Below the pieces are notes generated by a model, which did not search any database, had not been told where the DNA came from, and saw nothing but the letters and a program-made list of their open reading frames with translations. Below are positions 45,753-61,736 of a stretch of 64,000 bases of DNA, piece by piece. Source of the stretch: a virus. The position numbers and the translations under genes were made by a program. Where the stretch lies: the IMG/VR virus record IMGVR_UViG_3300029267_001061, positions 3,332 to 67,331 of that record. The stretch is one strand, 5' to 3'. Every line of letters begins with the position of its first letter. The first letter of the stretch is position 1.

Positions 45753-45753
45753 C

Positions 45754-46479: not shown

Positions 46480-46480
46480 G

Positions 46481-47050: not shown

Positions 47051-47051
47051 T

Positions 47052-47222
47052 CTACCCCCTTGGGATCTTGTTGAAGCGATTGATCAAGTGCTCGTCCTGG
47101 AGGCAGCACTTCTTGAACTTCTTCCCCGATCCACACGGGCAGGGTTCGTTCCGGCCTGGGAGCTTGCCTCCACGAGCCTTGAGTCCTTTGCTGAAAGCTA
47201 TCTGTCGGATGGGTCCGGCCAT
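47052..47222 (-). CDS. 56-aa SEC-C motif protein (not in ORF track)
   Basis: [18 protein letters not shown]; SD AAGGAGG; TAGAAT upstream. Confidence 0.85.
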
Positions 47223-47249
47223 GTTGCCCTCCTTCGAAATGATTCTACC

Positions 47250-48707
47250 CTACTCGAGCTCTGTCTCATCCCCGACAAGGAACCTCTTGACCCGAGCTCT
47301 GTCCACCTTGTCTCCACGTCCGCACATCACCTCCGCTATGGCCTTCTTGTCCTTCAACATGCTGTAGATCCCGTAGTCGATTGTGCCCCTCATCAGCAGG
47401 TACTGGTAGAGCACCGGGTTCTTCTGACCCACTCGGTGGAGCCGGTCCTGGGCCTGCTTGAAGTCGCCGTAGTTGTATGTCATCGAAGTGAAGATCGCCA
47501 CCGACGCGGCGGTCAGTGTGATCCCCAAGGAGCCTGCTTGATACTGAGCGATGAAGACCTTGCGGTCTCCCTTCTGGAACAGGTCGATCTCCTCCTGCCG
47601 CTGGTCGGATGGAATCGAGCCCATCATGACCGACGGCGTCGTGTCGAACTCTTCCATGCACATCTCGATCAGGCGCTCGATCTCCCAGATGAAGCGGCAG
47701 AAGATTACGACCTTCTGGTCTGATTCGACGATCCACTCGTACAGGAGCTCACGCATCGCTCTCATCTTCTCGTCGCCAAGCGTTCTGAGCTCGTCGCCCT
47801 CGGTCTTCGCGAATCCGCTTGTGATCTGACAGAGGCGGAGGGATCGAGCAAGGACGTTGGCGGCAGTCACGATCTCGCCAGAGTCCAGTTCGATCAACAG
47901 TTCGTCCACCATCTTGTCGTACATGCGTTTCGTGTTGCCTGTCGCCTCCACCGGCACAACCTGGAATCTCTGTGGCGGCAAGTCGGGAAGAACCTCCGCC
48001 CGCGACATGATGACCGAGTGGCGCTTGATGATTGCACTGAGCTCGTCCATGTGCCGCCAGCCAATGGGCTGCCGACCCTGGAACCCGCCCCACACCACGT
48101 AGTAGTCCTTGAAATCGGAGAACCGAGTACCGGTCTCCTCCGGCGCCACCATCCGCATCTGGCTGAACACGTCGAGCGGATTCTTCGTGATCAGAGTTCC
48201 CGTCAGCATCAGCACCTCGGGTACATTGCGACCGAGTGCGTACGCTGCCTTGGTTCGCTTCGCGTTCGGGGTCTTGATGAGATGGCACTCGTCGAAGATG
48301 AGGATGTCGGGAGCGAACCGGCCAATGGCTTCGCGCATCTTCAACAGCATGTCATAGTTGATAACCGCGATCTTCGTTCGCCGAGTCTTGCTCCTGTGAA
48401 GCTCTAAGAGGGCGTTCAAACGCGTTTGGAATGACCCTGAGGTGAGCTTCACCAGGTCGTACTCATAAGGGCAATTAGCAGCCCATTCGTTTTCCCAGAC
48501 GCCCGCGACGCTCAGGGGGCAGACCACAACTACGCGAATCGGCCTGCTCCACTTGAGTTCACGGCAGCCGCAGTAGTCGACCGCGATCTTCGTCTTCCCC
48601 AGCCCAGGTTCGAGCAACAGAGCAGTGCGCGTGCGCCGGAGTAACCGACGCAGCGCCCGCTTCTGATACTTGAACGGAGGGAGCTTAGAGAAGTATTTCC
48701 GCCCCAT
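47250..48707 (-). CDS. SNF2-family helicase
   Basis: PGLGKT, DECH, LTGT, GITLT, QAQDRLHRVGQ. Confidence 0.93.
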   Translation of the reverse strand: MGRKYFSKLPPFKYQKRALRRLLRRTRTALLLEPGLGKTKIAVDYCGCRELKWSRPIRVVVVCPLSVAGVWENEWAANCPYEYDLVKLTSGSFQTRLNALLELHRSKTRRTKIAVINYDMLLKMREAIGRFAPDILIFDECHLIKTPNAKRTKAAYALGRNVPEVLMLTGTLITKNPLDVFSQMRMVAPEETGTRFSDFKDYYVVWGGFQGRQPIGWRHMDELSAIIKRHSVIMSRAEVLPDLPPQRFQVVPVEATGNTKRMYDKMVDELLIELDSGEIVTAANVLARSLRLCQITSGFAKTEGDELRTLGDEKMRAMRELLYEWIVESDQKVVIFCRFIWEIERLIEMCMEEFDTTPSVMMGSIPSDQRQEEIDLFQKGDRKVFIAQYQAGSLGITLTAASVAIFTSMTYNYGDFKQAQDRLHRVGQKNPVLYQYLLMRGTIDYGIYSMLKDKKAIAEVMCGRGDKVDRARVKRFLVGDETELE

Positions 48708-48972
48708 TCTTTCGCACCTCCTCGACCAGGTCGACCACAGCCATCCGTTCGACCACAACTTTCCAATCTCCAACGGAAGCGGCCACCCAAGCATCGAACA
48801 CGCACTGATCTTCCATCCGGGCAAGAAGGCGGAGAAGCTTCTCCTCCGGGAATACATTCTCAGTGAGGAGGGTGGTAATCCTCGACTGCCATCTCGACAT
48901 TGATGAGTATCCCACGTGGGGAGTGGTGGGATCCTGGCGTTTCTTCTTCCCCTCTTCTTTCTTCTCGGCCAT
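48685..48972 (-). CDS. Hypothetical protein
   Basis: Translationally coupled in the operon. Confidence 0.6.
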   Translation of the reverse strand: MAEKKEEGKKKRQDPTTPHVGYSSMSRWQSRITTLLTENVFPEEKLLRLLARMEDQCVFDAWVAASVGDWKVVVERMAVVDLVEEVRKNGAEILL

Positions 48973-49187
48973 TACCTCATCGCCTCGCTGTTCTTGATGT
49001 ACTCAGCTGCCTGCTCCACCGTCAACCCGCGATCGAACATGTTGCCGTAGTCGTAACCGCTTAGCTCGTTCATTCCGGCTCCCACGCGGGCCGTTAGCGC
49101 GTCATCCAGTCGATCCTTCCAGCGGATCCACTCGGCTCGATCGCGTGGCTGCTTCCTTCTCTGCACCGTCTTCCTGTGCGTGGCCAT
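48972..49187 (-). CDS. Hypothetical protein
   Basis: Translationally coupled in the operon. Confidence 0.6.
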   Translation of the reverse strand: MATHRKTVQRRKQPRDRAEWIRWKDRLDDALTARVGAGMNELSGYDYGNMFDRGLTVEQAAEYIKNSEAMR

Positions 49188-49894
49188 TAGCTCTGCCCCC
49201 TCTTCACCTTCTTGGAGCTCTTCTTCTTCGCCTTGACTGGGCCGTGTCCCTTCTTGTAGACCGAGAAGGCAGCTCCGATCTTCTGCGCGGAGAACTCATC
49301 CTCGGTCAACGGGATCGGGTGGTAGACGAAGTTGAATCGGCTCGTCCAGTCGTCCATGTCTATGATCTGTGCGATGTAGGGCTTCCACGCCTTGCGGGGG
49401 ATGGGATGGTTCGAGTTCTCGCCGGTGAGGTGGACTTCGAGGATGTGGTGGGTCTCGAGGTCGATCTTCATGATGGCAACCTTGGTGAGTGTGGTAGCAT
49501 CGCCGTGCCGGGAGACGATGACTTTGCGGTAAGCGATTCCCGACTCCGATTCTTCCTCGAGCGGAATCTGGGGGTTGTCATCCACGATGGGTTCTGGCCC
49601 CTTCTTCTTCTTCCGCGCCCGCTTGCTCGGCGGGGGCGGCCCCTCAGGGAGCCAGAGCTCGATCCCCTTGGGCTCGGTTGGTGCGGGCACTGCACCCTCA
49701 CACCAGAGCTCCTGCTTCTGGAAGTACGCGAACAGCCTCTTCGCTTGCTTGGCAGAACCACAGGTGATGATGAGATGTTGGGTCTCCTGGTCGACTACCG
49801 TCTGGATGGCGGTGTCGATGATTTCCTTCGAGAGAGCCTTCCGCGCCAGCTTCCGGACTCGTCCCGCGAGTAGTTGTGCTTCGGTCTTGGCCAT
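49187..49894 (-). CDS. Hypothetical protein
   Basis: SD GGAGGTTGA; 235 aa. Confidence 0.7.
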   Translation of the reverse strand: MAKTEAQLLAGRVRKLARKALSKEIIDTAIQTVVDQETQHLIITCGSAKQAKRLFAYFQKQELWCEGAVPAPTEPKGIELWLPEGPPPPSKRARKKKKGPEPIVDDNPQIPLEEESESGIAYRKVIVSRHGDATTLTKVAIMKIDLETHHILEVHLTGENSNHPIPRKAWKPYIAQIIDMDDWTSRFNFVYHPIPLTEDEFSAQKIGAAFSVYKKGHGPVKAKKKSSKKVKRGQS

Positions 49895-49900
49895 GCTTCT

Positions 49901-50158
49901 TCAACCTCCCTTATTGCGAATCATACCCCATCTTGCCAGTGCTACTCCAGAGAACTCGTTTCCGACGATGTAAGCGATCATGTCGTCGGGCTCCGTGACG
50001 AAGGAGCTCAGCTCTGGTTCTCCCGCTTGGCGCATTACTTGTTGGGCTTGGTAGTTCAGTTCCTGGACGCTTACCGAGCGCAGCTCCTCGATCCGCGTTT
50101 GGATCGTGTGGAGCTGGGCGAAGAATTGCTTCCTGTCCTCGGGTGCAGTTCGGGCCAT
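49901..50158 (-). CDS. Hypothetical protein
   Basis: SD GGAGGTTGA. Confidence 0.65.
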   Translation of the reverse strand: MARTAPEDRKQFFAQLHTIQTRIEELRSVSVQELNYQAQQVMRQAGEPELSSFVTEPDDMIAYIVGNEFSGVALARWGMIRNKGG

Positions 50159-50185
50159 GTTCTCAACCTCCCCGGGGGAAGGGGC

Positions 50186-50392
50186 CTAAGCCCCCTCCTC
50201 CGCGATTTCGAAGCCGTGGAAGATACCCTGCGCGTATGCGTCTCGGTTATCCTCGATCCAGACGACCAGCTCGTAGTACTCCTCGCGGTTCGCGATGAAC
50301 TGAACCCCGTTCCTGTCCAGCATGTTGATCTCGCCGCTCTGGCGGATAGCCTCCAGTTGTTGGTGAACCTTAGCTGGTACCTGTACTGCCAT
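50186..50392 (-). CDS. DUF5049-like protein
   Basis: AIRQSGEINMLD...VQ.IA....YELV.WI. Confidence 0.75.
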   Translation of the reverse strand: MAVQVPAKVHQQLEAIRQSGEINMLDRNGVQFIANREEYYELVVWIEDNRDAYAQGIFHGFEIAEEGA

Positions 50393-50792
50393 CTTCAACC
50401 TCCTGTGCGCGGGCCGCGCCGCGGATCCCGTGGATGATGTTCTCCAGCCTCTCGATCTCCACTTGGAGTTGAGCGACTCGTGGTTGAATCTCGTCGTGTA
50501 GGTCGGCTACTCCCTCCTTCCACTCGTGGATGTCTCCAAGGAGGTAGTCCATCGAGTTCTCCAGGGTCGTTGCGTTGTACTCGCCCAGTGGGCCATCTGG
50601 TTTCGCGTTGTCGTCGAGCGGGTCGAAGCTCACTGCCTCGAAGTTGAGTGTCCCGATGAAGTCGCACTGGGTACACTCCAGGTTCAGGCAGAAGAACTGG
50701 TCGACTCGGTCGGCCTCGTACTCCGCGAGCTCTGCCCCACACTTGGGGCAGGCTCGATTGTGTGCGAGTATGAAGAGTTCTCGGTAGTTCAC
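50370..50792 (-). CDS. Zn-ribbon protein
   Basis: CPKCG...CTQC; coiled-coil C-terminus. Confidence 0.65.
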   Translation of the reverse strand: MNYRELFILAHNRACPKCGAELAEYEADRVDQFFCLNLECTQCDFIGTLNFEAVSFDPLDDNAKPDGPLGEYNATTLENSMDYLLGDIHEWKEGVADLHDEIQPRVAQLQVEIERLENIIHGIRGAARAQEVEDGSTGTS

Positions 50793-50794
50793 CG

Positions 50795-51133
50795 TTAGCT
50801 CCCCTTCGTAACCTGTCGCATCTTCTTGTAGGTTTCTTCGCCGAAGGCCGTTTGGACCGCTGTGCGGAAGCCGAGGAGTTGAGCGTATGCCCGGGTCTCG
50901 CCGTCGCTGAACTCGACCTTGGAGATGATTCCCGTCTTGGGGTCGCTGACTCGGATGTGGTCGGCGGCCGAGAAGAGGTTCACAGTTCGCTCTCCGCGGA
51001 AGGTAGCCTTCGGGGAGGCCAGTCCGTCGATGGGGAGTTCGCCGTTGCTCAGGAAGAGCCGGGTGCGGTTGAGCTCGCGCTCGAACCTTCGCTGTCGTTT
51101 GGTCCTCGTTGTTGCTTCTTTGGTTGTAGCCAT
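50795..51133 (-). CDS. Hypothetical protein
   Basis: SD GGAGGTTGA, promoter upstream. Confidence 0.65.
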   Translation of the reverse strand: MATTKEATTRTKRQRRFERELNRTRLFLSNGELPIDGLASPKATFRGERTVNLFSAADHIRVSDPKTGIISKVEFSDGETRAYAQLLGFRTAVQTAFGEETYKKMRQVTKGS

Positions 51134-51162
51134 GTTTTCAACCTCCGATGTTAGATACATTG

Positions 51163-51171
51163 ATTCTACCA
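51163..51171 (-). promoter_or_regulatory. Extended -10 promoter element
   Basis: TGGTAGAAT on the minus strand, intergenic. Confidence 0.5.
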
Positions 51172-51268
51172 CGATTTCCTTTCGGCGTATACAGCTGCGG
51201 GGGTGATGCTCGTCACGTTTGTTGAAGATACAAATTCCGGTTGTCTCGCCATCCTGTACCCCCCTTGG

Positions 51269-52246
51269 CTACAGGGTTACGCCGTGTAGGGCGAGGAAGT
51301 GGTCCAACTGAGTGTCGGGAATGTTCATGTAGTAGCCAAGTTCCTCGTGACTGAGGTTCTTCGCCATCCCCCTCTGGAGTTGTCGGGCCGAAGCCGGGCC
51401 TTCCGTGATCTTCGCCGAATACTCCAGGTTGAAGGTCGAGCCGAGCTCTAGGTCCACCTTGATTCCACTGGATGAGTTGACCGAGCGGAACTCGCGGCCC
51501 ATTTCGATCTTCGAGTACCGACCGTCCGGGCGGCTGATGTACAGCGCGTTCTCGACCCACCCCCAGAAGATGATGGTTCCGAGCGTCTGCGCTCCGCGCC
51601 TTCCATCGTCTCGAGCCTTCTTGGTGTGGTGGACCAACACGAGTGCGGTGTCCTGCGATCGAGCGAGAAAGCTCAACCAGTCCAACGCCGGCTGAACTTC
51701 GCGAGCCTCGTTGAAGTTCACTGTCGGGAAGAGTCGGTACCAGGGGTCGAAGATTACGAGTTCGGGTTCGACCTTCGTGGCTATCATCCGCTCCATGAAC
51801 GCCTGGTCCTTATCTCGGCCGAGATCGAGCGGCCCGGTGTAGAACCAGATCGGCGGTCGCTTCTCGGGCTCGAACACGATTCCCTTCTCAGTGTGTCTGA
51901 TCTTGCCGAGAAGTCCTCGGCTCGCTAGGATCTTGGAGACCCGAGCCTTCAAGCTCTCGATCGTGTCCTCTCGTGCCACAAGCATGACAGGCCCGTCAAC
52001 CAAGGTTGTGAAGTGACCGAGGAACGGCGTGCCTGATGCGACTGACACAGCGAGATCCATCATCAGGTATGACTTGAACGACTTCGGAGGCGCAGAGACC
52101 AATCCGTACGCGCCCTTCTGCCAGATGTTGTGCACGAGCCACTCCGGTGGTTGGAACTCACCGGTCATGACATCCTCAAGTGAGAACAGGCTTTCGAGTA
52201 GTGCTTGCTCCCTAACTGCTTCCCGATCTTGGTGTAACTCTGACAT
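51269..52246 (-). CDS. AAA_25/RepA-like replicative helicase
   Basis: APPKSFKS, SVASGTPFLG, VIFDP, LVHHTKK. Confidence 0.9.
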   Translation of the reverse strand: MSELHQDREAVREQALLESLFSLEDVMTGEFQPPEWLVHNIWQKGAYGLVSAPPKSFKSYLMMDLAVSVASGTPFLGHFTTLVDGPVMLVAREDTIESLKARVSKILASRGLLGKIRHTEKGIVFEPEKRPPIWFYTGPLDLGRDKDQAFMERMIATKVEPELVIFDPWYRLFPTVNFNEAREVQPALDWLSFLARSQDTALVLVHHTKKARDDGRRGAQTLGTIIFWGWVENALYISRPDGRYSKIEMGREFRSVNSSSGIKVDLELGSTFNLEYSAKITEGPASARQLQRGMAKNLSHEELGYYMNIPDTQLDHFLALHGVTL

Positions 52247-52406
52247 CTTTGCCCTCCACGACCAGATCCCTCATCTTCTCGAACGTGATGCTAGCTATCG
52301 TCCCGTCCGCACTGGGGTCTGGACAGTCCCATAATACCGCAACCATGTCCCGGTACTTCTTCCACCGGGGACCGCGCTTGAACTTCTCCAACGTGGCGTG
52401 GCTCAT
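52212..52406 (-). CDS. Hypothetical protein (start uncertain)
   Basis: Fills the gap between primase and helicase. Confidence 0.4.
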   Translation of the reverse strand: MSHATLEKFKRGPRWKKYRDMVAVLWDCPDPSADGTIASITFEKMRDLVVEGKDVRVTPRSGSS

Positions 52407-52435
52407 GACCGTTCCGCGTCGGGAACGATCCTTGA

Positions 52436-53308
52436 TCAACTGGACTCTAAGTCCGGTGAGTACTTGGCGACCACCTTGTTCGCCTCTTGCCATAGCCTGA
52501 GCTCTCCATCCGTCCGCTCCTCGTACTTCGACCGGGCCATCGGCGTGTTTCGTACGAGGTTGTAGACCTGCAGGGCTGTGAACCCTGCGAGTGCAAGCAT
52601 CTTCTCCAACTCCCAGATCCGAGCGGAGCGGTCATCAACCAAGTGTGGTTCCGCTCGCAGGAGATGGCGCCCTCGGCCGTTCAGGCGTTTCCTCGCATCC
52701 TTCACGAGTGCTCGATACACCGGCTCACTGAGAACCGGAGCTCCACGCCTGAGCAGCACTACGTTTTCATCAGTTCCGGGGAAATCTCTCGGATCGTACA
52801 CGCGATCGAGATCGGCGTCCACAACGTGGACCTTCGGCGCCGGATCGTACTTGAAGTTGTACGAGCCCGGCACGCGAAGCACTTGAGTGAGATCCCATCC
52901 TCCGGGGTCGAAGCCATTCAAATCAGCGAGATGCTTGTTGATGCCTGCGACCCGAGGGGGTGACACCTCAGCGGTTAGCATCCAGTACGCGTGATGACGA
53001 CCGGGGCTGCTCTCCACCAGGATTGTGGGTTCGGGATCGAACGGGAGCGGTGCTTCGTCACAGTCAGCGAACGCGACGCTCGAGCCTTGCACGTTGGGAA
53101 TCAGCCGGCGTCGGTTCTTGAAGAGAAGCGGGCAGAAGTACAGGTCGTGTCGCATTTCGACTTCCATCCGCATGCGGTCTCGAAGTGTGGTCCAGTCGGT
53201 TGGCCATTCAATGGAGTACTCGCGCCAGTAGTGAGAAGGGAGGCGGGCTGGAAAGTGCGCCCAGCCCGTCCCCTGTAGTATGGCATCGAGGAAATGCCTA
53301 GTCTTCAT
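52436..53308 (-). CDS. RepB-type DNA primase
   Basis: DLYFCP, ADCD, ESSPGRHHAYW, LRVPGSYNFKY. Confidence 0.9.
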   Translation of the reverse strand: MKTRHFLDAILQGTGWAHFPARLPSHYWREYSIEWPTDWTTLRDRMRMEVEMRHDLYFCPLLFKNRRRLIPNVQGSSVAFADCDEAPLPFDPEPTILVESSPGRHHAYWMLTAEVSPPRVAGINKHLADLNGFDPGGWDLTQVLRVPGSYNFKYDPAPKVHVVDADLDRVYDPRDFPGTDENVVLLRRGAPVLSEPVYRALVKDARKRLNGRGRHLLRAEPHLVDDRSARIWELEKMLALAGFTALQVYNLVRNTPMARSKYEERTDGELRLWQEANKVVAKYSPDLESS

Positions 53309-53654
53309 CCTCCTCCTCGAGGTCTTCTTCATCCTCGGGGTCCTCGTCCTCTTCGTCGGAATCATCGAGGTCTTCCTCCTCCTCGATCTCCTCCTCCTCG
53401 GAGTCCTCGGCCTCCTCGTCGAGCTCCTCCTCGGGCGCCGCTGGTTCGTCCTCAGGGGCGGATAGGGCTTCGCCCTCCGCGTTCAGGATTGTGACCTGAT
53501 CCTCCACACCCAAGAAGACCGCGATGTCCTGAAGAGCTTCCGCGGGAGTCTCGTGTTCCGTGGCGACATCAACCTTGGCGCCGTCGACATACCGAACAAC
53601 GGAGAGAGGGCCGGAGCCCTCCCTCTGTACTACCTTGGCGAGGAGGTTACTCAT
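53298..53654 (-). CDS. Small protein with long Asp/Glu tail
   Basis: Overlaps the histone-like gene stop and the primase start. Confidence 0.75.
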   Translation of the reverse strand: MSNLLAKVVQREGSGPLSVVRYVDGAKVDVATEHETPAEALQDIAVFLGVEDQVTILNAEGEALSAPEDEPAAPEEELDEEAEDSEEEEIEEEEDLDDSDEEDEDPEDEEDLEEEDED

Positions 53655-54135
53655 CCTCGTCCTCGTCTTCGTCGTCCTCGAACTCGTCGTCGTCTTCTTC
53701 GAGTTCGTCCTCATCCTCTTCTTCCTCGTCCTCGTCTTCCTCTTCCGGCTCGTCCGGAGCGCGCTGATCCGCGATCTTGAGGAGTGCGACTTCGAGGTCG
53801 GCCGGAGTGACAGTGGACTGTTTCCGTGCCGTGGTTGCCGCGCCAGCTTCAAGCAGAAGCTGTTCGACCAGTGTGTCGAGCGCGAGGCGGAGTGCCCTGG
53901 CCATGCGCCAACCCTTGCCGGAGAGCAGAGCTCGGACCTTCTTCTTCGTGATCAGGCCGGGACCCGTGTAGGGCTCTCGGGGTTTGCGCGTTCGCTTCTT
54001 GGAAGCGGCCTTCTTGGCCGTGCTCTTCTTCGGAGCGGCCTTCTTGGTTGCGGGCTTCTTCGCCGTCGGCTTCTTGGCCGCAGGCTTCTTCGCTGCGGGC
54101 TTCTTCGCGGTACTCTTCTTCTTGCTGTCAGCCAT
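53647..54135 (-). CDS. Histone-fold protein with Lys-rich N-tail and acidic C-tail
   Basis: Core LITKKKVRALLSGKGWRMA...LDTLVEQLLLEAGAATTARKQSTVTPADLEVAL matches the prokaryotic histone alpha1-L1-alpha2-L2-alpha3 pattern; SD AAGGAGGT. Confidence 0.75.
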   Translation of the reverse strand: MADSKKKSTAKKPAAKKPAAKKPTAKKPATKKAAPKKSTAKKAASKKRTRKPREPYTGPGLITKKKVRALLSGKGWRMARALRLALDTLVEQLLLEAGAATTARKQSTVTPADLEVALLKIADQRAPDEPEEEDEDEEEEDEDELEEDDDEFEDDEDEDEDE

Positions 54136-54247
54136 TGTGCTGACCTCCTTCTGTAGCGCCTGAAGCGCCCTCGTTAGGTTGTGGGGTTTTGCCCCCGTGT
54201 CGGCGGAGGGCGGATGAAGAGTCGATTGCTCGTCGTGTTTTCTTCAT
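54128..54247 (-). CDS. Possible 39-aa leader ORF coupled to the histone-like gene
   Basis: SD AAGGAGG, ATG 54247, stop overlaps the histone gene start. Confidence 0.35.
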   Translation of the reverse strand: MKKTRRAIDSSSALRRHGGKTPQPNEGASGATEGGQHNG

Positions 54248-54272
54248 GTAGGATGCCCTCCTTTGTACCGGC

Positions 54273-54281
54273 ATTATACCA
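54273..54281 (-). promoter_or_regulatory. Extended -10 promoter for the histone/primase operon
   Basis: TGGTATAAT, intergenic. Confidence 0.6.
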
Positions 54282-54298
54282 CAACTCCAGCTCTTCTC

Positions 54299-54838
54299 TC
54301 AGCTTTCTTCGGAGCTGTCCTGAAGCGCCCTAGCCAAGGCTAGTTGGCCGAGTCGGTCTGCGAGGACCGTCGCCGAAACGCGCGCTTGGAGGATCTGCTG
54401 GAGCTCGTCGATTGGGAGGAACGGCGCCGCATGTTCGCGTCGCTTCGCTGCCTCGTTGACCTCGTGGATGAACTCCACCGGAGGCACGCCCGGGTAATAC
54501 GGGTAACTTTCCGTGCCCCCTCGCGCGCCCATTCCTTTGGTAAGGAAGCGGAGCGCTGGGATCTGGCGGTCGACGGCGCCGCGGAATGTGCGACGCAGTT
54601 CACGAGTTTCCTCGGTCGACATACCGAGCGGGTAGGCCTCCACGCGGAAGCGATCCGCATCGTCCTCATCGAAGATGACCGAGAAACTCCACTTGCCTGC
54701 CAACGCCACCAACATCGTGAGCACCCAAGGATAGGCGCCCACACGAGTCATGTCGCCGATCATTCGGCTGATGTTCTCGTGTGAGTCCTCCAGCAGGTTC
54801 TCGACGGCCAACGGTTGAATGTTCACATCACCGATCAT
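54299..54838 (-). CDS. Hypothetical protein
   Basis: SD AAGGAGG; ATGA overlap. Confidence 0.65.
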   Translation of the reverse strand: MIGDVNIQPLAVENLLEDSHENISRMIGDMTRVGAYPWVLTMLVALAGKWSFSVIFDEDDADRFRVEAYPLGMSTEETRELRRTFRGAVDRQIPALRFLTKGMGARGGTESYPYYPGVPPVEFIHEVNEAAKRREHAAPFLPIDELQQILQARVSATVLADRLGQLALARALQDSSEES

Positions 54839-55221
54839 TCGGCCTCCTTCTGCTTGATTCCCCAGGCCTGGAGCTCCCCCTCTGTGGCCTGCCATTTCCC
54901 CGCCCGGAGAAGGCGAGCCATTGTACAGTAGATGGCGATATCCGCCCACGTGTCTTCCACGTTCTCGCACTTGAGCTCCCGGCCCTGCCGGAAGTGCGAG
55001 ACCAAGCGCGAGAACTTGTCGGCGAGTCGGACGAAGATTCCTTCCTCACCGCCGATCAGGATGTTCAGCGAGCTGTAGTCGTGTTGCTTCCTGGAGAATA
55101 GCTCGAGCTGCTCAATGAACAACCAAGCCATCTCCCTCGTCTTCGACTCTTCCGGGAACTCGATGTGTTCTGTGATTGCAGGCCAGACCTGCTCATCGAA
55201 CTGCTTACGCGTCAAGCTCAC
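54835..55221 (-). CDS. DUF1599/nucleotide-modification-associated domain 1 protein
   Basis: KQHDY...GI.VRL.DK..RL...E.VEDTW.DIA.Y. Confidence 0.85.
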   Translation of the reverse strand: MSLTRKQFDEQVWPAITEHIEFPEESKTREMAWLFIEQLELFSRKQHDYSSLNILIGGEEGIFVRLADKFSRLVSHFRQGRELKCENVEDTWADIAIYCTMARLLRAGKWQATEGELQAWGIKQKEAE

Positions 55222-55496
55222 GGTTTCACCAACTTCGTATCCGGAGTCTCGATCGGCGGCGGCGCCATCTCTTCATGCGCGTTCGCCACAAGGGCGACAC
55301 CGAACGTCATCAGCATCGTGCCGTCAGACCGGAGGATGTTCAAGAACGGGCCTTGGTTGAAGATGCTTTCCAGCTCCTCGCCCTTGACCTCCGCGACGAC
55401 CGAGCCATCGCCGTTGAGCAACTTGACATCGTCGATCTTCATCTGCTTCTCCGGGCCTGCCGGATGCGGGATGGCCCCGCCGGGTGTCCTGCTCAC
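55218..55496 (-). CDS. Hypothetical protein
   Basis: SD GGGAGGT; coupled. Confidence 0.6.
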   Translation of the reverse strand: MSRTPGGAIPHPAGPEKQMKIDDVKLLNGDGSVVAEVKGEELESIFNQGPFLNILRSDGTMLMTFGVALVANAHEEMAPPPIETPDTKLVKP

Positions 55497-55900
55497 TGTG
55501 TACCTCCCATCAAGTTGTGGAACGACTGGTGGAGCGAGCTCGGGTCGATGTCCGCGTTGAACAACAGCTTGTCATGCGGACGCGGGAACGCCAGGCCGTG
55601 CCTGTAGACCTGAGTCATGAAGCCCTCCAAGATGTAGCCGTCCTCGCCAAGATCCTCAACGACCGCGACCGTGAAAACGCCGGCCGTGATGAAGCTCGCG
55701 GAATCGTCTTGCGCGAAACCCAAGAGCATGTCGGGAACGTTGTTTGGATCGTAGCCCTCAGCAACGTCGTCACGAGCTACGCGAAGCAACACGTAGTCGC
55801 CGATCGTTGCACGCCGAATCGTCAATGACTGGTGGAATCCACGGAGCTCGCCGGTGTTCAGCAGGACCGTGTCCATCCCTCCGCCAGGTGCATCTTTCAT
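55493..55900 (-). CDS. Hypothetical protein
   Basis: Coupled in the operon. Confidence 0.6.
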   Translation of the reverse strand: MKDAPGGGMDTVLLNTGELRGFHQSLTIRRATIGDYVLLRVARDDVAEGYDPNNVPDMLLGFAQDDSASFITAGVFTVAVVEDLGEDGYILEGFMTQVYRHGLAFPRPHDKLLFNADIDPSSLHQSFHNLMGGTQ

Positions 55901-56058
55901 TTCCATCCTCCTCGTAGTGCGTGAATGACCATGCCCCAGAGCGCGATGCTCAGGGCGTAGAAGCCAACGGTGAATTGTATCAGGCTCCAACTGAGCCAGG
56001 TGCCCTCAACCCAGGCGCCGATGAAGTAGAATCCGACGAGAAGCGCGATCAGGAACAT
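55897..56058 (-). CDS. Small two-TM membrane protein
   Basis: SD GGAGG; hydrophobic 53 aa. Confidence 0.55.
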   Translation of the reverse strand: MFLIALLVGFYFIGAWVEGTWLSWSLIQFTVGFYALSIALWGMVIHALRGGWK

Positions 56059-56312
56059 GGCGCCTCCAGGTCGTTCTCGTACACGTAGTGCATCTTCCAT
56101 TCCATCCCCGCGGGCCAGTGATACTTCGCCAGGATCTGCCGAGTGTGTTTGTCGATCACTTGGATCCCCCGGTAATCTGCAACCCAGCCCTGGTCCTCCC
56201 CGATCTCAATCCAGACCGTCTGGTCCTTGTAGTTCCGCATCGCCTGCATGTCACGGAGCTCTACGCTGATTCCAACTAACCGTCCGCGTTTCCGCTTGCG
56301 CCGTCTGAACAT
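56049..56312 (-). CDS. Hypothetical protein
   Basis: SD AAGGAGG. Confidence 0.6.
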   Translation of the reverse strand: MFRRRKRKRGRLVGISVELRDMQAMRNYKDQTVWIEIGEDQGWVADYRGIQVIDKHTRQILAKYHWPAGMEWKMHYVYENDLEAPCS

Positions 56313-56857
56313 TGCTGCCTCCTTTCATACTCGCGGTATTCGTTGATGTCAAGATCGGGCCCGCGCTCTTCGACCGTCATCTGCCACGGCTTGAGCTTGT
56401 GTTCCAGGTACCAAGCCGCGATCTTCAACGCGTTCTTCCTCGTTTGCTTGTGGACGTGCATGAGTTGGTCGATCAAGCGCATGCCGATCTCGAACCCTTG
56501 AACGAGTCCTTCCTTCATTGCAGCCACTCCACCTACCTTCCACTTCGCTGCGAGCTTCAACATCGGGAACTGATCTGGGTACCCCCACATGATGTGCTCT
56601 TCCAGCCATCGCCGATGCTCGTACGTGAAGAACTGGATCGGCATCTGGCGAGGGGTGTAGACTAGTTGCCCAGCCTGCAGATCCACAATCAGGGCCAACG
56701 GGTCGATGTCCAACCGGTCGTCCCCCTCCAGGCCCAGTATAGGTTGCACGCCTTCACCTGGGCGATGAAGAAGCATCAAGTGACCGACTCGCCCCTCGAA
56801 GGTGTCGATGCCCCTCTTGATCTCGCCGGGGCTAATTATCGCGTAGAGCCCAGGCAT
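56276..56857 (-). CDS. Hypothetical protein
   Basis: Coupled in the operon. Confidence 0.6.
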   Translation of the reverse strand: MPGLYAIISPGEIKRGIDTFEGRVGHLMLLHRPGEGVQPILGLEGDDRLDIDPLALIVDLQAGQLVYTPRQMPIQFFTYEHRRWLEEHIMWGYPDQFPMLKLAAKWKVGGVAAMKEGLVQGFEIGMRLIDQLMHVHKQTRKNALKIAAWYLEHKLKPWQMTVEERGPDLDINEYREYERRQQCSDGASGNADG

Positions 56858-57186
56858 CAAGCAGCCTTCATGCTCTTGTGGATGAACTTGGTTTCCCCGA
56901 AGGTCACAGATTTCCATCCGCCCCGGGGTCCGAACTCTTCGTCAGTGATCTCGCCGTACTGAGCGATGGCCTCCTCGCGTGTCAGTCGGCGTTCGACAAC
57001 GCCCCAAGACCCCATGCGGATGCAGACCAGGTCGGCACCCACCTCTGCGCGCAACTCGGCAAAGCGTTGGTCTCCCAGGTGTTCGGTGATCGGGCGGCCC
57101 CACGCTATGGGTTTGCCACTCCAACCGTCGCAGAGCAGGACTTGTGATTCTCCTAGTACAGATTCAAAACGGGTCAGGTCAGACAT
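56857..57186 (-). CDS. Hypothetical protein
   Basis: SD AAGGAG; GPRGG motif. Confidence 0.6.
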   Translation of the reverse strand: MSDLTRFESVLGESQVLLCDGWSGKPIAWGRPITEHLGDQRFAELRAEVGADLVCIRMGSWGVVERRLTREEAIAQYGEITDEEFGPRGGWKSVTFGETKFIHKSMKAA

Positions 57187-57652
57187 GGGGAACTCCTTGT
57201 ATGGTGAGGTCGATTTCGAGCTTCGGATTCGGGCTGAACAGCGTCGGTTGCTGGAGATTGAGTTGGAACCTCTCACAGAGCTGATCCCCAGGCAGCATCC
57301 AGACAAGCTCGAGCTGTGGGCCAAGTTCCGGCACCCTCAGTTCTTCAGCCAGTGCTTCGAGCAACTCCACGACTCGTTCACGTTTCACGGTATGGCCGAT
57401 GTAGTCAGGCTCCACCTGAACTTTGGGGATATCGCACCACCACTCGATGTTGGATTCAATGATCTTATGTGAAGACGCCCATCGCCAGTAGCCGCCGTGA
57501 TCTGCGGTGTACCTCGCTACGATCGGGGTCGTCAGCGTATCTTCGGGGTTGTCTCCCGGGACGACCATGTTGGGCAAGAGCACCCACACGCGCCGGTCGT
57601 CTTCAGGTAGTCGTTGACTAGTCGGAATCATCCTTGCGACGATGCTTGGCAT
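57179..57652 (-). CDS. DUF551-like protein
   Basis: IP.S.RLP....VWV...W. Confidence 0.5.
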   Translation of the reverse strand: MPSIVARMIPTSQRLPEDDRRVWVLLPNMVVPGDNPEDTLTTPIVARYTADHGGYWRWASSHKIIESNIEWWCDIPKVQVEPDYIGHTVKRERVVELLEALAEELRVPELGPQLELVWMLPGDQLCERFQLNLQQPTLFSPNPKLEIDLTIQGVPHV

Positions 57653-57965
57653 TGCGCCCTCCCTTCCGCTTGTCGATCTTCTTGATCTCGCAGACTGCGA
57701 ACACGTGAGCCAGGTGCTTCTCGAACTCGGCCATGACTTCCCTGCCTGTGGCACGTGAGTATCCCCGGCGCGGTAAGCTCTTCGGGAACTCGCCATCATC
57801 CCAGAACCCAATGCCGACCTTGCCGGAGGCTGCGATCTCCATGTGCTCGAGGATCGTATCCCAGTCTTCGCCCTTCACCATCTTCTTCGTGCGCTTCAGA
57901 CGACCGTTCACGTAGAACGCCCGCTTCTTCGTGTGTAGATTCGTGAGTACAGTGATCAACCTCAT
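57618..57965 (-). CDS. Hypothetical protein
   Basis: SD GAGGAGG. Confidence 0.6.
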   Translation of the reverse strand: MRLITVLTNLHTKKRAFYVNGRLKRTKKMVKGEDWDTILEHMEIAASGKVGIGFWDDGEFPKSLPRRGYSRATGREVMAEFEKHLAHVFAVCEIKKIDKRKGGRNAKHRRKDDSD

Positions 57966-58192
57966 GTGTCGTAGTCCTCCTCTACTGGGGCCATCTCGCC
58001 CTTCTCCGGTGCTTCGGGTACCCACTCGTGTTCCGGATCCTCGACGAAGATCAGCGATGTGGTGGGAACCGTGTTGCGGAACATCTGCGTCGTCTTGACC
58101 AGCCAGCCTCCGGGAACCTTCATGCGGTTCGTGTACTTACCGATCCGCTCCCAGAGAATCGGTGGTGCTGGCTTCCTATCTTTCCGAGGCAT
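57962..58192 (-). CDS. Small phage protein (RxKVPGGWLV...FV.DP.H.W family)
   Basis: Motif recognised from phage hypothetical proteins. Confidence 0.65.
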   Translation of the reverse strand: MPRKDRKPAPPILWERIGKYTNRMKVPGGWLVKTTQMFRNTVPTTSLIFVEDPEHEWVPEAPEKGEMAPVEEDYDT

Positions 58193-58754
58193 CTTGCACC
58201 GGCGGTTTGGAAAGTAGCCACTCGGGGTGCTCTGCATCGTGAAGGATGGAGTCGCAGAACAGCCGCCATTGCGGAAGCCTGTGAGTCAGGCGCTGCCTGA
58301 TCATTCGCTGAAGGGCCATGTAGTTCGTGCACACGATACGCCGCTGGAGGAAGGACTCCGGCAACGCGACCTTCAGTCTTTCCCAATCTCCCTCTTGCCG
58401 CAAGCGCTCGAGATGAGCGATGTAACTGAGGGGCAAGGAGTACTCGAACATGCTGTTCGTGATTTCTTCATCGGTGATCGTGTGCATTGTCGACTCGCTC
58501 TGCTTGGTGACTCCGACTCGGTAGGTGTCGAACTCCTGCCACCAGTAGCGGGGCGCTTTGATATCGACCCACACGACGATGCTCTCCAGGAACTTGTTGT
58601 GGCCATCACCCTTGTAGGCGAGGCGGTCGGCGACGGGTCTCATCTTCGCGAGGAGTTCCTCGTCGCTGCTGAGTTTCTTGTGTTGGCCATGACTGAGCGA
58701 AAGCCCAAACAGGGCGGGCACTAGGCCGTGCTCAGCTATGATTCGTACTCGCAT
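58176..58754 (-). CDS. ThyX-like flavin-dependent thymidylate synthase homologue
   Basis: GHNKFLE...APRYWWQEFDTYR...SESTMH...LP...NY...QR..HRL.QW. Confidence 0.7.
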   Translation of the reverse strand: MRVRIIAEHGLVPALFGLSLSHGQHKKLSSDEELLAKMRPVADRLAYKGDGHNKFLESIVVWVDIKAPRYWWQEFDTYRVGVTKQSESTMHTITDEEITNSMFEYSLPLSYIAHLERLRQEGDWERLKVALPESFLQRRIVCTNYMALQRMIRQRLTHRLPQWRLFCDSILHDAEHPEWLLSKPPVQDASER

Positions 58755-58968
58755 ACTTCCTCCCTTTGCTGGTCAACCGGAAGGCATCATCAATCAACTG
58801 GTGGTGCTTGAGTTTGAGGATGGTGGCCTTCTTGATTCGCTGGATGGGTGCGCCCGTGCCGGGGAGACACGCGAAGTAATCTTTCCGCCGGCGCTCGATG
58901 ACTCTTTGACCTGTTGATAGGTCTAACAGGATCTTCCGTTCTACGGCCCGTAGTTGTACTTCTGCCAT
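58732..58968 (-). CDS. Hypothetical protein, possible winged helix
   Basis: SD AAGGAGG; C-terminal LTSKG; TATAAT at 59002-59007. Confidence 0.6.
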   Translation of the reverse strand: MAEVQLRAVERKILLDLSTGQRVIERRRKDYFACLPGTGAPIQRIKKATILKLKHHQLIDDAFRLTSKGRKYASTNHS

Positions 58969-59146
58969 TGACAGCTCCTCCTTTGAAAGGTTGGTACGTA
59001 CATTATATATGCCCCGGAAGGCGTTACAGAAGCCAGCCCCCTAATCATCGAGGGGGCTGCTTCCGGCGCGGTAGTAGTGGGCATGGCCGACCCACTGACT
59101 GGAGGGCTGTCGAACCATCATATCGGAGGTCGGGTAGTCTTCCCAA

Positions 59147-59413
59147 CTAGCGGCGATTTCGTCGCTTAGATGCCTGAGCAGCCTTCCGCTTCTTCTTCTT
59201 CGACTTGTTTGCTCTGTGATTGGGATTGGATTGCGGGAAGTAATTGCGCTGGGGCTGGCGCTTGACGCGCGGCTCGGCGAAGGCGTTTGGCCCCATCCCG
59301 AGACCGAGGGCAAGGCTTAGCCCGGATCGGCGCATGTTGGAGTGCGTGGTGCGATCCTCAACAAGCGACATCAAGTCGGCCATTTCCTGTTGGGGCGTGC
59401 GTTGTTCGTTCAC
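59147..59413 (-). CDS. Basic hypothetical protein
   Basis: C-terminal KKKRKAAQASKRRNR. Confidence 0.6.
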   Translation of the reverse strand: MNEQRTPQQEMADLMSLVEDRTTHSNMRRSGLSLALGLGMGPNAFAEPRVKRQPQRNYFPQSNPNHRANKSKKKKRKAAQASKRRNRR

Positions 59414-59658
59414 CAGACGACCCCCGGATGCTGTTGATAGTATGGGTAGAACGGGTTGTACGGATGACAGCTGTATGGGTACGGTCGCCACGGCGGGCGG
59501 TAACAGTAGACTTGTCCCGGCGGGCAAGGGGCGGGGGGCACCCAGTACGTAACTGTACCGGGCGCCTCCACCGAAACCGACAGGACGGGAGTCACTTCAA
59601 GTGCCACACACATCGCGAGTGAAGCTGCGAGTATGATCAGTGCCAATAGCTCTTTCAT
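59410..59658 (-). CDS. Small secreted Pro/Tyr-rich peptide
   Basis: Signal peptide MKELLALIILAASLA; SD GGAGG. Confidence 0.6.
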   Translation of the reverse strand: MKELLALIILAASLAMCVALEVTPVLSVSVEAPGTVTYWVPPAPCPPGQVYCYRPPWRPYPYSCHPYNPFYPYYQQHPGVVW

Positions 59659-59686
59659 GGTGTTATCCCTCCACCAATACTATAGG

Positions 59687-60775: not shown

Positions 60776-60787
60776 GGGGGTTCCCCC

Positions 60788-60895
60788 TTAGGATGTACTC
60801 CAGGAAAGACAGGCCAGACCTGCACCTATCAGTGCAACTGGAGCTAACAGGATACTGAGGATGACCAGTACCCAGACCGTGCCCTCATCCAACAT
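60788..60895 (-). CDS. 35-aa single-TM peptide (not in ORF track)
   Basis: MLDEGTVWVLVILSILLAPVALIGAGLACLSWSTS; TAATG coupling, SD GAGGAGG. Confidence 0.5.
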   Translation of the reverse strand: MLDEGTVWVLVILSILLAPVALIGAGLACLSWSTS

Positions 60896-61365: not shown

Positions 61366-61406
61366 GGGCCCTCCTTAGTTAGTAGGGTGTGCGCCCGTAC
61401 CCCCTG

Positions 61407-61628: not shown

Positions 61629-61677
61629 GACTTCCTCCTTATTACTCAAGGACACGGGACCGCCCCGCGTCACGGCC

Positions 61678-61686
61678 ATTATACCA
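61678..61686 (-). promoter_or_regulatory. Extended -10 promoter at the start of the leftward arm
   Basis: TGGTATAAT. Confidence 0.55.
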
Positions 61687-61736
61687 TATCGGGAAGTGTT
61701 TGAAGATTCAGAGACAACAGGCGGGCCTATCCCATA

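Follow-up and report, generated by a model that had tools for sequence, protein, structure and literature searches.

The window analyzed here, a 64,000-nt stretch of viral DNA, encodes on its minus strand a protein of 162 aa (P0001), whose core is best read, on the basis of structure models and sequence profiles, as a histone fold placed between a long Lys-rich N-terminal tail and an almost purely acidic C-terminal tail. On balance, we lean toward a function as a phage histone homodimer that binds replicating DNA inside the cell and is kept in check by its own acidic tail. Each of the three elements, a histone in a phage, a Lys tail and an acidic tail on a histone, is already in the literature, and P0001 is an unusual combination of them. 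The gene and its parts were located as follows:

53647..54135, minus strand: tailed histone-fold gene (P0001), 162 aa, stop codon included
53980..54135, minus strand: Lys/Ala/Pro-rich N-terminal tail, aa 1–52 (from composition; predicted disordered)
53761..53946, minus strand: putative histone-fold core, aa 64–125 (from helices, fold matches, dimer model and profile link)
53650..53754, minus strand: poly-acidic C-terminal tail, aa 128–162 (from composition; predicted disordered)
54143..54150, minus strand: Shine-Dalgarno sequence AAGGAGGT, 7 nt 5' of the P0001 ATG

The three-part layout claimed in the original prediction was confirmed by the ORF coordinates and the composition. Residues 1–52 contained 22/52 K+R, 13 A, 6 P and a single D/E, arranged in AKKP-type repeats, while the 75-aa core region (residues 53–127), within which the originally quoted core lies, had 13 K+R and 7 D/E, and 32 of the 35 residues in the acidic tail (128–162) were D/E with no K/R, making the whole protein near neutral (35 K+R against 40 D/E). 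An orthologue of 165 aa with 136/162 identical residues was present in the related phage contig L001. Its acidic tail shared 22/35 residues and included indels, so that the length and sequence of this part varied and the composition was kept. The dN/dS values between the two orthologues were 0.23 for the Lys tail, 0.14 for the core and 0.18 for the acidic tail. The strong Shine-Dalgarno sequence, the orthologue in the same gene order and the core dN/dS show that P0001 is a real gene under purifying selection and more than a chance low-complexity frame.

The AlphaFold2 model of the full-length protein predicted a short alpha1 (64–72), L1 (73–79), a long alpha2 (80–103), L2 (104–110) and alpha3 (111–125), i.e., the short-long-short helix topology of a histone fold with two loops of 7 residues each. 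The tails were disordered in this model (N tail with pLDDT 45–53 and no secondary structure). The core-only model had identical helices with a mean pLDDT of 76.8, and alpha2-alpha3 reached 84–88, although the alignments behind the full-length and the core models were very shallow (3 and 6 rows, respectively). Among the matches listed by Foldseek against the PDB, all 46 for the full model and all 43 for the core model came from histone-containing entries, mostly H4-sized chains with 27–34% identity over ~65 columns, a probability of 0.95–1.00 and TM of 0.3–0.6; their E-values were around 0.01 (0.011 or more, none at or below 0.001) and the rmsd exceeded 5 Å. The best Z in the wide VIA-align search was 6.9, for a TAF9/TAF6 entry (6f3t_F, 60 residues, 3.0 Å), and 18 of the 19 top rows were histone-fold entries as judged from their titles, with Z below 8 throughout, a range that can reflect a common helical arrangement. 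In the BFVD fold search the matches were headed by giant-virus histones.

The homodimer model of the core had an ipSAE of 0.87 in comparison with 0.00 for the best of three controls; the ipSAE mark is reached by 20/30 proteins solved as one-chain pairs and by 1/23 solved as single chains. Contact agreement among the three runs was 100%, and the pLDDT of the partners was at least 91. The predicted contacts included V90-V90 (core positions 38-38), where the alpha2 helices cross, and T108/V109 (core 56/57) in L2 against W76/R77 (core 24/25) in L1 of the partner; alpha3 touched the partner as well, as far as core position 74. An antiparallel handshake homodimer is therefore a confident prediction of the model, which may in part reflect its memory of solved histones. 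The original prediction had taken the core for a histone fold able to form such a dimer, and the helix-loop-long helix-loop-helix model, the handshake contacts in it and the profile route to bacterial alpha3 histones described below all point the same way.

The sequence link to known histone families was obtained through an intermediate. Neither the core by itself nor a profile built from the two phage proteins gave a significant histone match in the PDB (best H4, E 0.035–0.19). On P0001, PF00125 reached 15.8 bits, short of its cut-off of 26.4, and 5.6 bits when the genome was scanned; PF00808 and PF09123 gave no match at E≤10, and nothing was found for the core in NCBIfam and PHROGs. The 58-aa histone relatives also missed the Pfam cut-off (17.4 versus 21.8 bits). 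The connecting sequence was P0005, a Lys-tailed protein of 98 aa, which matched the solved histone HLp (9qt0) with E 4e-7. Its library-wide E-value of 8e-6 with P0001 leans on the Lys tails, since the core-to-core score was only 23.9 bits, equivalent to a library-wide E of ~4. Nevertheless, the two-phage core profile (A3) aligned with the P0005-family profile (A4) in hhalign at 94.3% and E 1e-7 over 53 gapless columns, and the latter profile matched HLp (3.9e-12), HTkC (9f2c, 1.8e-6) and HBb (8cmp/8fvx, 8e-4) in the PDB. At the level of sequence profiles, P0001 is kin to the bacterial alpha3 histones.

Several other affiliations were considered and rejected. A full-length PDB match to eukaryotic H2B (E 2.4e-5) was gone when the core alone was searched at E≤10 and was thus driven by the tail. 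The similarity to HC2 (PF07382, 30.5 bits against a cut-off of 40, over residues 1–51) and to an H1-like NCBIfam model (NF038053, 26 bits against a cut-off of 80, over the N tail) was compositional. Designed ankyrins topped the core-only PDB searches by summing one motif over the repeats of the target; P0001 contains a single ankyrin-like motif (LLLEAGA...TPADL), the best i-Evalue per stretch was 4.5, and the Pfam ankyrin models gave no match to P0001 at E≤10.

Compared with the solved histones, P0001 is, as judged from models and alignments, an atypical alpha3 histone with a long alpha3, a Gln in the clamp and the face-to-face (FtF) tetramer residues absent. The predicted alpha3 of 15 residues (111–125) is far from the 3–4 residues of a truncated alpha3, and the phage chain continues for 13 ordered residues beyond the end of all four relatives. 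The alpha2 of 24 residues aligned without gaps with the alpha3-type relatives and was short in relation to the nucleosomal length, the alpha2 of alpha3-truncated histones being 4–5 residues shorter than the nucleosomal one according to PMC11390915. The clamp Arg of the RxTxxxxD motif (RD clamp), present in 4/4 relatives, was replaced by Q106 in both phage proteins, in agreement with the Gln noticed originally, while T108 and D113 of the motif were kept and R104 and K105 stood two and one residues upstream of Q106. This replacement could mean a weaker L2 geometry or DNA contact. The R/N pair invariant among the relatives (R44/N48 in P0016 of the 58-aa family), whose columns, by their spacing, probably correspond to R48/N52 of the published FtF logo, aligned to A100/R104 in the phage protein.

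The FtF alpha3 histones are the closest known system. They include HLp from Leptospira perolatii (PDB 9QT0-2; PMC12701072), the Thermococcus kodakarensis histone HTkC (PDB 9F2C; PMC11390915) and the 58-aa actinobacterial family, and have in common with P0001 the gapless alpha1-L1-alpha2-L2 register, G-x-R-M in L1 and T-V/L-x-P-x-D-L in L2/alpha3. Moreover, the relatives P0005 and P0014 carry Lys-rich N tails as P0001 does. In contrast to them, P0001 has a 15-residue alpha3 instead of a single turn and a 35-residue acidic tail, and its core has no detectable direct sequence similarity to HLp, the link passing via the intermediate 58-aa family. HBb (Bd0055) from Bdellovibrio bacteriovorus, a 'bacterial dimer' alpha3 histone (PDB 8CMP; PMC11317129), resembles P0001 in being small, basic and handshake-forming, with a dimer-type interface (predicted in P0001) and no FtF tetramer residues, but it lacks long tails and has a truncated alpha3. 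The comparison with Bd0055 made in the original prediction was thus reasonable at the fold level, although HLp was the stronger match even for the intermediate family. With the eukaryotic H4 and H2B the phage protein shares a full-length alpha3 and the tail-plus-fold layout, H4 giving the best Foldseek rows, but it has neither an alphaC nor an alphaN helix, is a predicted homodimer and is not a member of those families.

Phage histone-fold proteins have been described in two surveys (PMC11390915; PMC13681535), compared here as far as their available text goes. The second distinguishes in the Caudoviricetes the clusters VFFHFP, BBVHFP, VTTHFP and VHHHFP; P0001, like them, is the product of a tailed phage. 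In the VFFHFPs the N tail is Lys-rich and 5–40 aa long, i.e., shorter than the 52 aa of P0001, and the BBVHFPs are predicted Bd0055-like dimers, whose C-terminus forms a helix; each shares one trait with P0001, a comparison by description only. The 'phage histones' of PMC11390915, or VTTHFP, have an N-terminal alpha3 fold followed by a long tetramerizing C-terminal helix, in contrast to P0001, which has no C-terminal helical domain, a 52-aa tail before the fold and an acidic tail after it. The accessible parts of both surveys mention no acidic tail in these phage clusters. The assertion in the original prediction that most prokaryotic histones lack long tails was unsupported in that form: the first survey gives positively charged tails as common in bacterial FtF histones (PMC11390915), and the Lys-tailed class of phage proteins in the second (PMC13681535) speaks against it as well. 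Highly negative, disordered N- or C-terminal tails are described for archaeal coiled-coil histones in PMC11390915, where they are proposed as intramolecular inhibitors occluding the DNA-binding face. Unlike P0001, those archaeal proteins possess a long coiled-coil helix at the C-terminus, and the passage available describes no Lys tail in them, again a comparison by description.

In the databases searched, only two phage lineages are known to carry the tailed histone gene, which makes covariation and deep alignments impossible. A word-indexed search of 5.8 billion proteins returned 2/77, 1/39 and 5/6 candidates in three rounds. When 1.84 billion representatives were scanned in full by HMMER with P0001 as the query, 12 matches were obtained at E≤1e-3, 11 of them non-self (full sequences retrieved for 5/11), of which P0005 was the only one spanning the core. 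Nine non-self matches were confined to the Lys-tail portion of P0001 (residues 1–73); other non-core matches were one over residues 38–64 and one repeat protein over 88–123. No P0001 match was found by tblastn in the GenBank phages at E≤1, and a phage-containing profile gave 0/315 stretches in the GTDB genomes. The search for tailed homologues in phage metagenomes, suggested originally, was successful as far as a single contig of 17 kb, one record that appears under two names, and nothing else was recovered from IMG/VR and the JGI metagenomes. The ESM Atlas provided a weak lead, with best scores of 0.81–0.85, below the lead level of 0.9; at least two clusters among those listed carried PF00808, in 88% of the members of one and 17% of the other. 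The literature search did not find histone fold, bacteriophage and acidic tail together, and the member lists of the two surveys may contain P0001 or its kin.

Downstream of P0001 the following minus-strand genes were identified:

53298..53654, minus strand: acidic partner gene P0018, 118 aa, with an N-domain of ~70 aa and a D/E tail of ~45 aa
52436..53365, minus strand: RepB-type DNA primase (PF16793, 28 bits, cut-off 24.3)
52212..52493, minus strand: small ORF of 93 aa in the primase-helicase gap, conserved in L001
51269..52246, minus strand: AAA_25 (RepA/DnaB-like) helicase-type ATPase (PF13481, E 1.6e-28)

The ATG of P0018 overlaps the last codons of the P0001 gene (overlapping stop/start). 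P0018 was conserved in L001 and had no sequence match in Pfam, PHROG, NCBIfam or PDB, the frame without the first Met being used in some of these scans and the whole protein in the NCBIfam scan. The primase also matched phrog_3123 (E 5e-42) and phrog_10514, annotated as 'DNA primase' (E 3e-19), and its gene may actually begin downstream of 53365; the ATPase matched the C-terminal half of phrog_3123 (E 2.7e-50). The family search gave no match for the 93-aa ORF. The phage origin and the placement of the gene ahead of a primase and a helicase, as originally predicted, were both borne out. L001 keeps the same order of the P0001 orthologue, P0018, primase and helicase region. P0001 belongs to a minus-strand block of replication and nucleotide metabolism, and the structural genes form a distant plus-strand block. 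A genome scan found one histone-fold gene in the virus record, which fits a homodimer. The same phage encodes an SNF2 helicase. According to PMC13681535, the correlation between histones and SNF2 is significant in Megaviricetes and not in Caudoviricetes, and the association was set aside as evidence.

Upstream of P0001 three further features were recognized:

54273..54302, minus strand: promoter-like site with a weak -35 CTGAGA, an 18-nt spacer and an extended -10 TGGTATAAT at 54273–54281
54136..54266, minus strand: leader of ~130 nt, predicted structured and near-invariant between the two phages
54128–54247, minus strand: 39-codon upstream frame in the leader, with its own Shine-Dalgarno sequence and ATG inside a predicted hairpin

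The first of these is promoter-like by its match to the consensus only (10/12 positions, TG present). The TGGTATAAT site was the sole sigma-70-like site in the scan of 50500–55500, i.e., 1 found against 0.7 expected; TGNTATAAT occurred twice in the whole window, both times on the minus strand, the expected number being 0.22. The -10 of the promoter-like site was kept in L001 and its spacer was not. The leader region differed from L001 by one mismatch (54234) in ~213 nt (54071–54283), while the flanks had ~80–85% identity. Its predicted folding energy was -47.3 kcal/mol (MFE; z -3.29), none of 200 shuffles folding as well, and Rfam gave no match to the leader at E≤1. In four DNA sequencing runs, those with a small share held an L001-like variant with the same single leader difference (54234) and were not independent of the L001 variant; the low-complexity parts of the locus draw hundreds of unrelated contigs in read and contig mapping.

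Taken together, these data suggest the following mechanism for the histone that we favor. P0001 would pair with itself by the classical antiparallel handshake, and the most likely activity of the dimer is a sequence-independent binding to double-stranded DNA by a basic face of alpha1, L1 and L2 (K64-K66, R68, K74, R77, R80, R104, K105 and T108), to which two H1-like Lys-rich N-terminal tails may add further contacts. With a charge of approximately -32, the acidic tail nearly offsets the N tail (~+21) and the core (~+6), and it may fold back on these basic parts, in cis or between dimers, which would hold P0001 soluble and off DNA until displaced, as a built-in inhibitor or self-chaperone. The precedent for this role is the proposal made for the archaeal coiled-coil histone tails in PMC11390915. 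P0001 is coupled translationally to P0018, the primase and the helicase. Since the gene has its own promoter-like site, a conserved leader and this coupling to replication genes, P0001 probably acts on intracellular replicating DNA and is not a virion component. We infer the DNA binding, the roles of the tails, and the timing and target of action from these features. The phi29 p6 'histone-like' early protein, whose gene stands among replication genes, is what we take to be a functional analogue. The acidic tails of HMGB1, T7 gp2.5 and T4 gp32 compete with DNA for a basic surface and recruit partners. None of these four proteins has a histone fold and the likeness to P0001 is one of working principle only.

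An extension of this mechanism, which we regard as unlikely, is that the histone, its acidic tail and P0018 make up a minimal chromatin-assembly system of the phage, one that is coupled to replication. In such a system the acidic parts would hold the histone off DNA and pass it to new DNA at the primase-helicase, and a histone-coated replication intermediate might perhaps shield the DNA from nucleases or exclude host DNA-binding proteins. If true, this would be the first coupling of histone, chaperone and replisome outside the eukaryotes and their giant viruses.

The same gene neighborhood can be read differently. The translational coupling of P0001 to the primase and the helicase, in an order kept in L001, and the acidic end of the neighboring P0018 would also suit a replisome accessory, in which the role of the histone-fold dimer is that of a small clamp or adaptor on dsDNA and the acidic tail docks the primase, the helicase or a polymerase. 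Analogues of such a function are T7 gp2.5 and T4 gp32 with their acidic C-termini and, in eukaryotic polymerase epsilon, the histone-fold subunits Dpb3/Dpb4. A 52-residue H1-like Lys tail, however, typically belongs to a bulk DNA binder rather than to an adaptor, and we consider this analogy-based role possible, albeit rather doubtful. A protein loaded into the capsid with the genome, its Lys tail neutralizing the DNA, and entering the host together with it would have a basic tail like those of DNA-condensing proteins (HC2-like composition), but a gene in the minus-strand replication block, far from the plus-strand structural block, and a near-neutral product, which makes a poor condenser, leave this highly improbable.

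The nearest cellular relatives, chromosomal 58-aa histones of Actinomycetota MAGs (seven complete loci, L007–L013, on contigs up to 866 kb), raise the idea of a host-chromatin antagonist, i.e., a phage copy pairing or competing with a host alpha3 histone, with the acidic tail blocking DNA binding by the mixed dimer, so that the host nucleoid would be loosened or the host histone excluded from phage DNA. Differences of the phage copy from these histones include the loss of the clamp Arg and of the two FtF tetramer residues and the gain of the acidic tail. This is hardly probable in view of the retained Lys tail of the DNA-binding type and basic L1/L2 residues, the confident homodimer model and the core identity to the actinobacterial histones of only 26–35%, while the comparison of five actinobacterial MAGs with 20 kb of the window (44001–64000) produced only Lys-rich and acidic low-complexity matches. 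Finally, the core could be a generic three-helix domain between low-complexity tails with a convergent likeness to histones and ankyrins. The curated models all below threshold, the designed ankyrins as its top PDB sequence rows, the weak fold-search statistics (E ~0.01, Z <8) and the shallow alignments would fit that. Yet the ankyrin scores are sums over repeats with no significant single stretch, a 24-residue central helix is unfit for an ankyrin, and the listed Foldseek rows, all histone-containing, agree with the gapless 53-column profile match and the handshake contacts, making a non-histone domain very unlikely.

Nearly all knowledge of phage histone-fold proteins to date comes from computational surveys, and the in-vitro work published, as far as the available text of the sources goes, concerns histone triplets and singlets and not small phage histones. 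P0001 joins in 162 residues a bacterial-type fold with a full third helix, a long Lys tail and a charge-cancelling acidic tail, and its gene is wired to those of a primase, a helicase and another acidic protein. This makes P0001 a test case, compact and easy to express, for the roles of charged tails on prokaryotic-type histones, for a self-carried inhibitor or chaperone and for the use of histones in infection. If P0001 is an ordinary DNA binder, the finding adds one more phage histone. The 58-aa family, found in Nitriliruptorales-type Actinomycetota, may in addition widen the known range of bacterial histones.

The viral record comprises 67,331 bp with direct terminal repeats, and the window covers most of it. 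The plus strand of the window codes for tail and baseplate proteins, and genes for replication and nucleotide metabolism form a block on its minus strand (a UDG-exonuclease-PolA fusion, a SNF2 helicase, a primase and an AAA_25 ATPase). The gene of P0001, a protein with a predicted histone-fold core between two charged tails, is located on the minus strand; the start of the acidic protein P0018 overlaps its stop, while P0018 in turn overlaps the primase frame.

Features of the P0001 locus and of the minus-strand block
47250-48857, minus strand: SNF2-family helicase, sharing its minus-strand block with the P0001 gene
53298-53654, minus strand: acidic protein P0018, 118 aa, N-domain of ~70 aa and D/E tail of ~45 aa, kept in the related phage contig L001
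53647-54135, minus strand: histone-like gene of P0001, ORF of 162 residues
54128-54247, minus strand: 39-codon upstream frame, ending 5 nt inside the P0001 gene
54273-54302, minus strand: promoter-like site by consensus match, weak -35 and extended -10 TGGTATAAT

The three-part layout of the original prediction was borne out by residue counts: aa 1-52 include 22 K+R, 13 A and 6 P, the core (aa 53-127) has 13 K+R and 7 D/E, and 32 of the 35 residues in aa 128-162 are D/E, which makes the whole protein a near-neutral dipole (35 K+R against 40 D/E). An orthologue of 165 aa, identical in 136 of 162 residues, was found in L001, the single related contig (L003 and L004 are repeat finds of this record). 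Both phages have a common gene order of two small genes, the histone-like gene, the acidic protein, the primase, a small ORF and the helicase. The dN/dS values between the two proteins were 0.23 for the Lys tail, 0.14 for the core and 0.18 for the acidic tail, the latter varying in length and order with its acidity kept. P0001 is a real gene.

Among the curated models, the Lys tail had only a sub-threshold Pfam match to HC2 (30.5 bits, cut-off 40) and the core remained below the cut-off of PF00125 (15.8 against 26.4 bits); PF00808 and PF09123 had no match at E<=10 anywhere in the virus, and the core had no match in PHROGs or NCBIfam. This is weak counter-evidence, since the 58-aa histone relatives described below also fall short of the Pfam cut-off. 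An exhaustive scan of 1.84 billion representatives produced 11 non-self matches with a single core-spanning one, the Lys-tailed P0005 (98 aa), whose C-terminal 59 residues match the solved bacterial histone HLp (9qt0; E 4e-7). Its relatives are P0014 (with a Lys tail of 57 aa), P0015, the tail-less P0016 (58 aa) and P0017. The profile of this family reached HLp (3.9e-12), the archaeal face-to-face histone HTkC (9f2c; 1.8e-6) and HBb/Bd0055 (8cmp and 8fvx; 8e-4) in the PDB, the entries being identified from PMC12701072, PMC11390915 and PMC11317129. The two-phage core profile aligned with the P0005 family over 53 gapless columns (hhalign 94.3%, E 1e-7, 28% identity); alone, it did not reach HLp in the PDB search, and the direct match of the P0001 core with the P0005 core (23.9 bits) is not significant at the whole-library scale. 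Judged by sequence, the link of the phage core to this histone family is real but not overwhelming. The core-only PDB search also listed H4 at E 0.19 and was topped by designed ankyrin repeats, rejected because their score sums one short motif over many repeats. Kinship with eukaryotic H2B was likewise discarded: the full-length protein matched it in the PDB (E 2.4e-5), but the core alone did not.

AlphaFold2 predicted three helices in full-length P0001 (64-72, 80-103 and 111-125; 3-row alignment) between two disordered tails, with pLDDT 84-87 over aa 81-120, and the same helices in the core alone (6-row alignment; mean pLDDT 76.8). Foldseek against the PDB returned nothing at E<=0.001 for either model; histone-containing entries made up all 46 listed rows for the full model and all 43 for the core model, mostly H4-sized chains with 27-34% identity, prob 0.95-1.00 and E 0.011-0.056. 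The independent VIA-align search of 48,161 chains had the TAF entry 6f3t_F as the best match for both models (Z 6.7 and 6.9), and 18 of the first 19 rows with the core model were histone-fold entries by title, the exception being lambda GamS. Z values below 8 possibly reflect just a common helical arrangement, so that the weight rests on the enrichment for histone folds rather than on the score. In the BFVD search, giant-virus histones headed the list with weak E-values. The histone fold of the core is thus supported by concordant computational evidence, each line of which is modest, and it is very improbable that P0001 has some other fold altogether.

Two copies of the 75-aa core gave an ipSAE of 0.87 (0.86-0.87 in three runs), a mark attained for 20 of 30 proteins whose solved structure pairs one chain with itself and for 1 of 23 whose solved structure is a single chain; the best of three controls scored 0.00. 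For a chain resembling solved complexes, such a score indicates likeness rather than proof of binding. The contacts agreed 100% among the runs, with a partner pLDDT of at least 91. The lowest-error contacts joined V90 to V90 (core residue 38 with 38) at the alpha2 crossing and T108/V109 of L2 to W76/R77 of the partner's L1 (56/57 with 24/25), and alpha3 residues packed against alpha2 of the partner. The core therefore models as the handshake dimer by which the original prediction proposed to judge it. P0001 is the only histone-fold gene in the record, which fits a homodimer.

The alignment with the relatives showed conservation of G-x-R-M in L1 and of Thr, Pro, Asp and Leu in the L2/alpha3 motif. 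However, the nearest kin, the alpha3-truncated histones, all end where P0001 runs on for 13 ordered residues; its alpha3 is predicted to have 15 residues and to form part of the modelled dimer interface, so the truncation that defines this group appears to be absent. Furthermore, the clamp Arg of their RxTxxxxD motif is replaced by Gln106 in both phage proteins, and their invariant Arg and Asn, four residues apart, by Ala100 and Arg104 in P0001. From its spacing, the Arg/Asn pair of the relatives is equated with the R48/N52 tetramer contacts in the face-to-face logo of PMC11390915. Given the long alpha3, Gln106 and Ala100/Arg104, a face-to-face torus is less likely than a dimer or another higher-order contact via alpha3.

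Among cellular proteins, the closest to the core are tail-less 58-aa histones encoded on large chromosomal contigs in Nitriliruptorales-type Actinomycetota MAGs. Seven loci of this alpha3-type family were found, on contigs that reach 866 kb, in MAGs of Nitriliruptoraceae, Nitriliruptorales and other Actinomycetota; in the consulted passages of the histone literature, this phylum is not mentioned among the bacterial ones. The Lys-tailed P0005 and P0014 come from short metagenome contigs. The first four residues, M-A-D-S, are shared by P0001 and the actinobacterial 58-aa histones (P0016) before the sequences diverge, which may be chance or the trace of a Lys tail inserted behind the original start.

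The P0001 ATG is preceded at 7 nt by a Shine-Dalgarno sequence, AAGGAGGT. The nonamer of the promoter-like site is present in only two copies in 64 kb, both on the minus strand (0.22 expected). The second exact copy (61678-61686, minus strand) lies upstream of early-looking minus-strand genes, and outside the extended -10 element its surroundings do not resemble those of the promoter-like site of P0001. Between the -10 element and a point ~65 nt inside the P0001 gene (54071-54283, minus strand), the two phages differ by one mismatch in ~213 nt, compared to roughly 80-85% identity in the neighbouring sequence. The leader had no Rfam match and is predicted to be structured, folding better than 200 of 200 shuffles (z -3.29); its first predicted hairpin buries the Shine-Dalgarno sequence and ATG of the 39-codon frame. 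With two sequences compared, the near-invariant stretch could be either a regulatory RNA under purifying selection or a recent recombination patch.

As to function, we infer that a P0001 dimer would bind dsDNA via its basic alpha1/L1/L2 face and the two lysine tails, while the acidic tail, whose charge almost exactly offsets that of the Lys tail and core, would compete intra- or intermolecularly for these basic surfaces. The acidic tail of HMGB1 works as such a competitor. For archaeal coiled-coil histones, the negative tails have already been proposed to play this inhibitory role (PMC11390915). The own promoter-like site and the overlaps with P0018 and the primase frame suggest that P0001 would act within the cell on phage DNA that is being replicated, and a packaged condensing protein is hardly to be expected. 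A replisome adaptor, with the acidic tail docking enzymes, is unlikely but deserves consideration, while a protein that poisons a host histone or competes with it is a distinctly doubtful reading. P0018, which had no sequence match in Pfam, PHROG, NCBIfam or PDB, is a candidate partner of P0001. The published association between histones and SNF2 applies to giant viruses but does not extend to tailed phages (PMC13681535).

Each element of P0001 has a published precedent. The tailed-phage "phage histones" of Schwab et al. 2024 (PMC11390915) combine the alpha3 fold with a C-terminal tetramerisation helix, and positive tails are described as frequent in bacterial face-to-face histones, negative ones in archaeal coiled-coil histones (PMC11390915). 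Liu et al. 2025 (PMC13681535) sorted 289 non-redundant Caudoviricetes histone-fold proteins into seven clusters, including one with a Lys-rich N tail of 5-40 aa and a Bd0055-like one with a C-terminal helix. In the consulted passages and the literature searched, no phage histone was found that has both a long basic and a long acidic tail, that keeps a full-length alpha3 on its alpha3-type core, or whose gene leads a primase-helicase operon including an acidic partner; the comparison is with descriptions, and P0001 may already be among the survey members.

Two other proteins of the window were noted. The structural block opens with a 1410-aa protein (6-4238, plus strand) that had a weak match to an ADP-ribosyltransferase exoenzyme-type domain (PF03496; 29 bits against a cut-off of 23.4, with no single stretch passing). 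The 801-aa protein at 41421-43826 (minus strand) combines a uracil-DNA-glycosylase-superfamily domain, a 3'-5' exonuclease and a family A polymerase in one chain, with only 36-42% identity to its best phage relatives.
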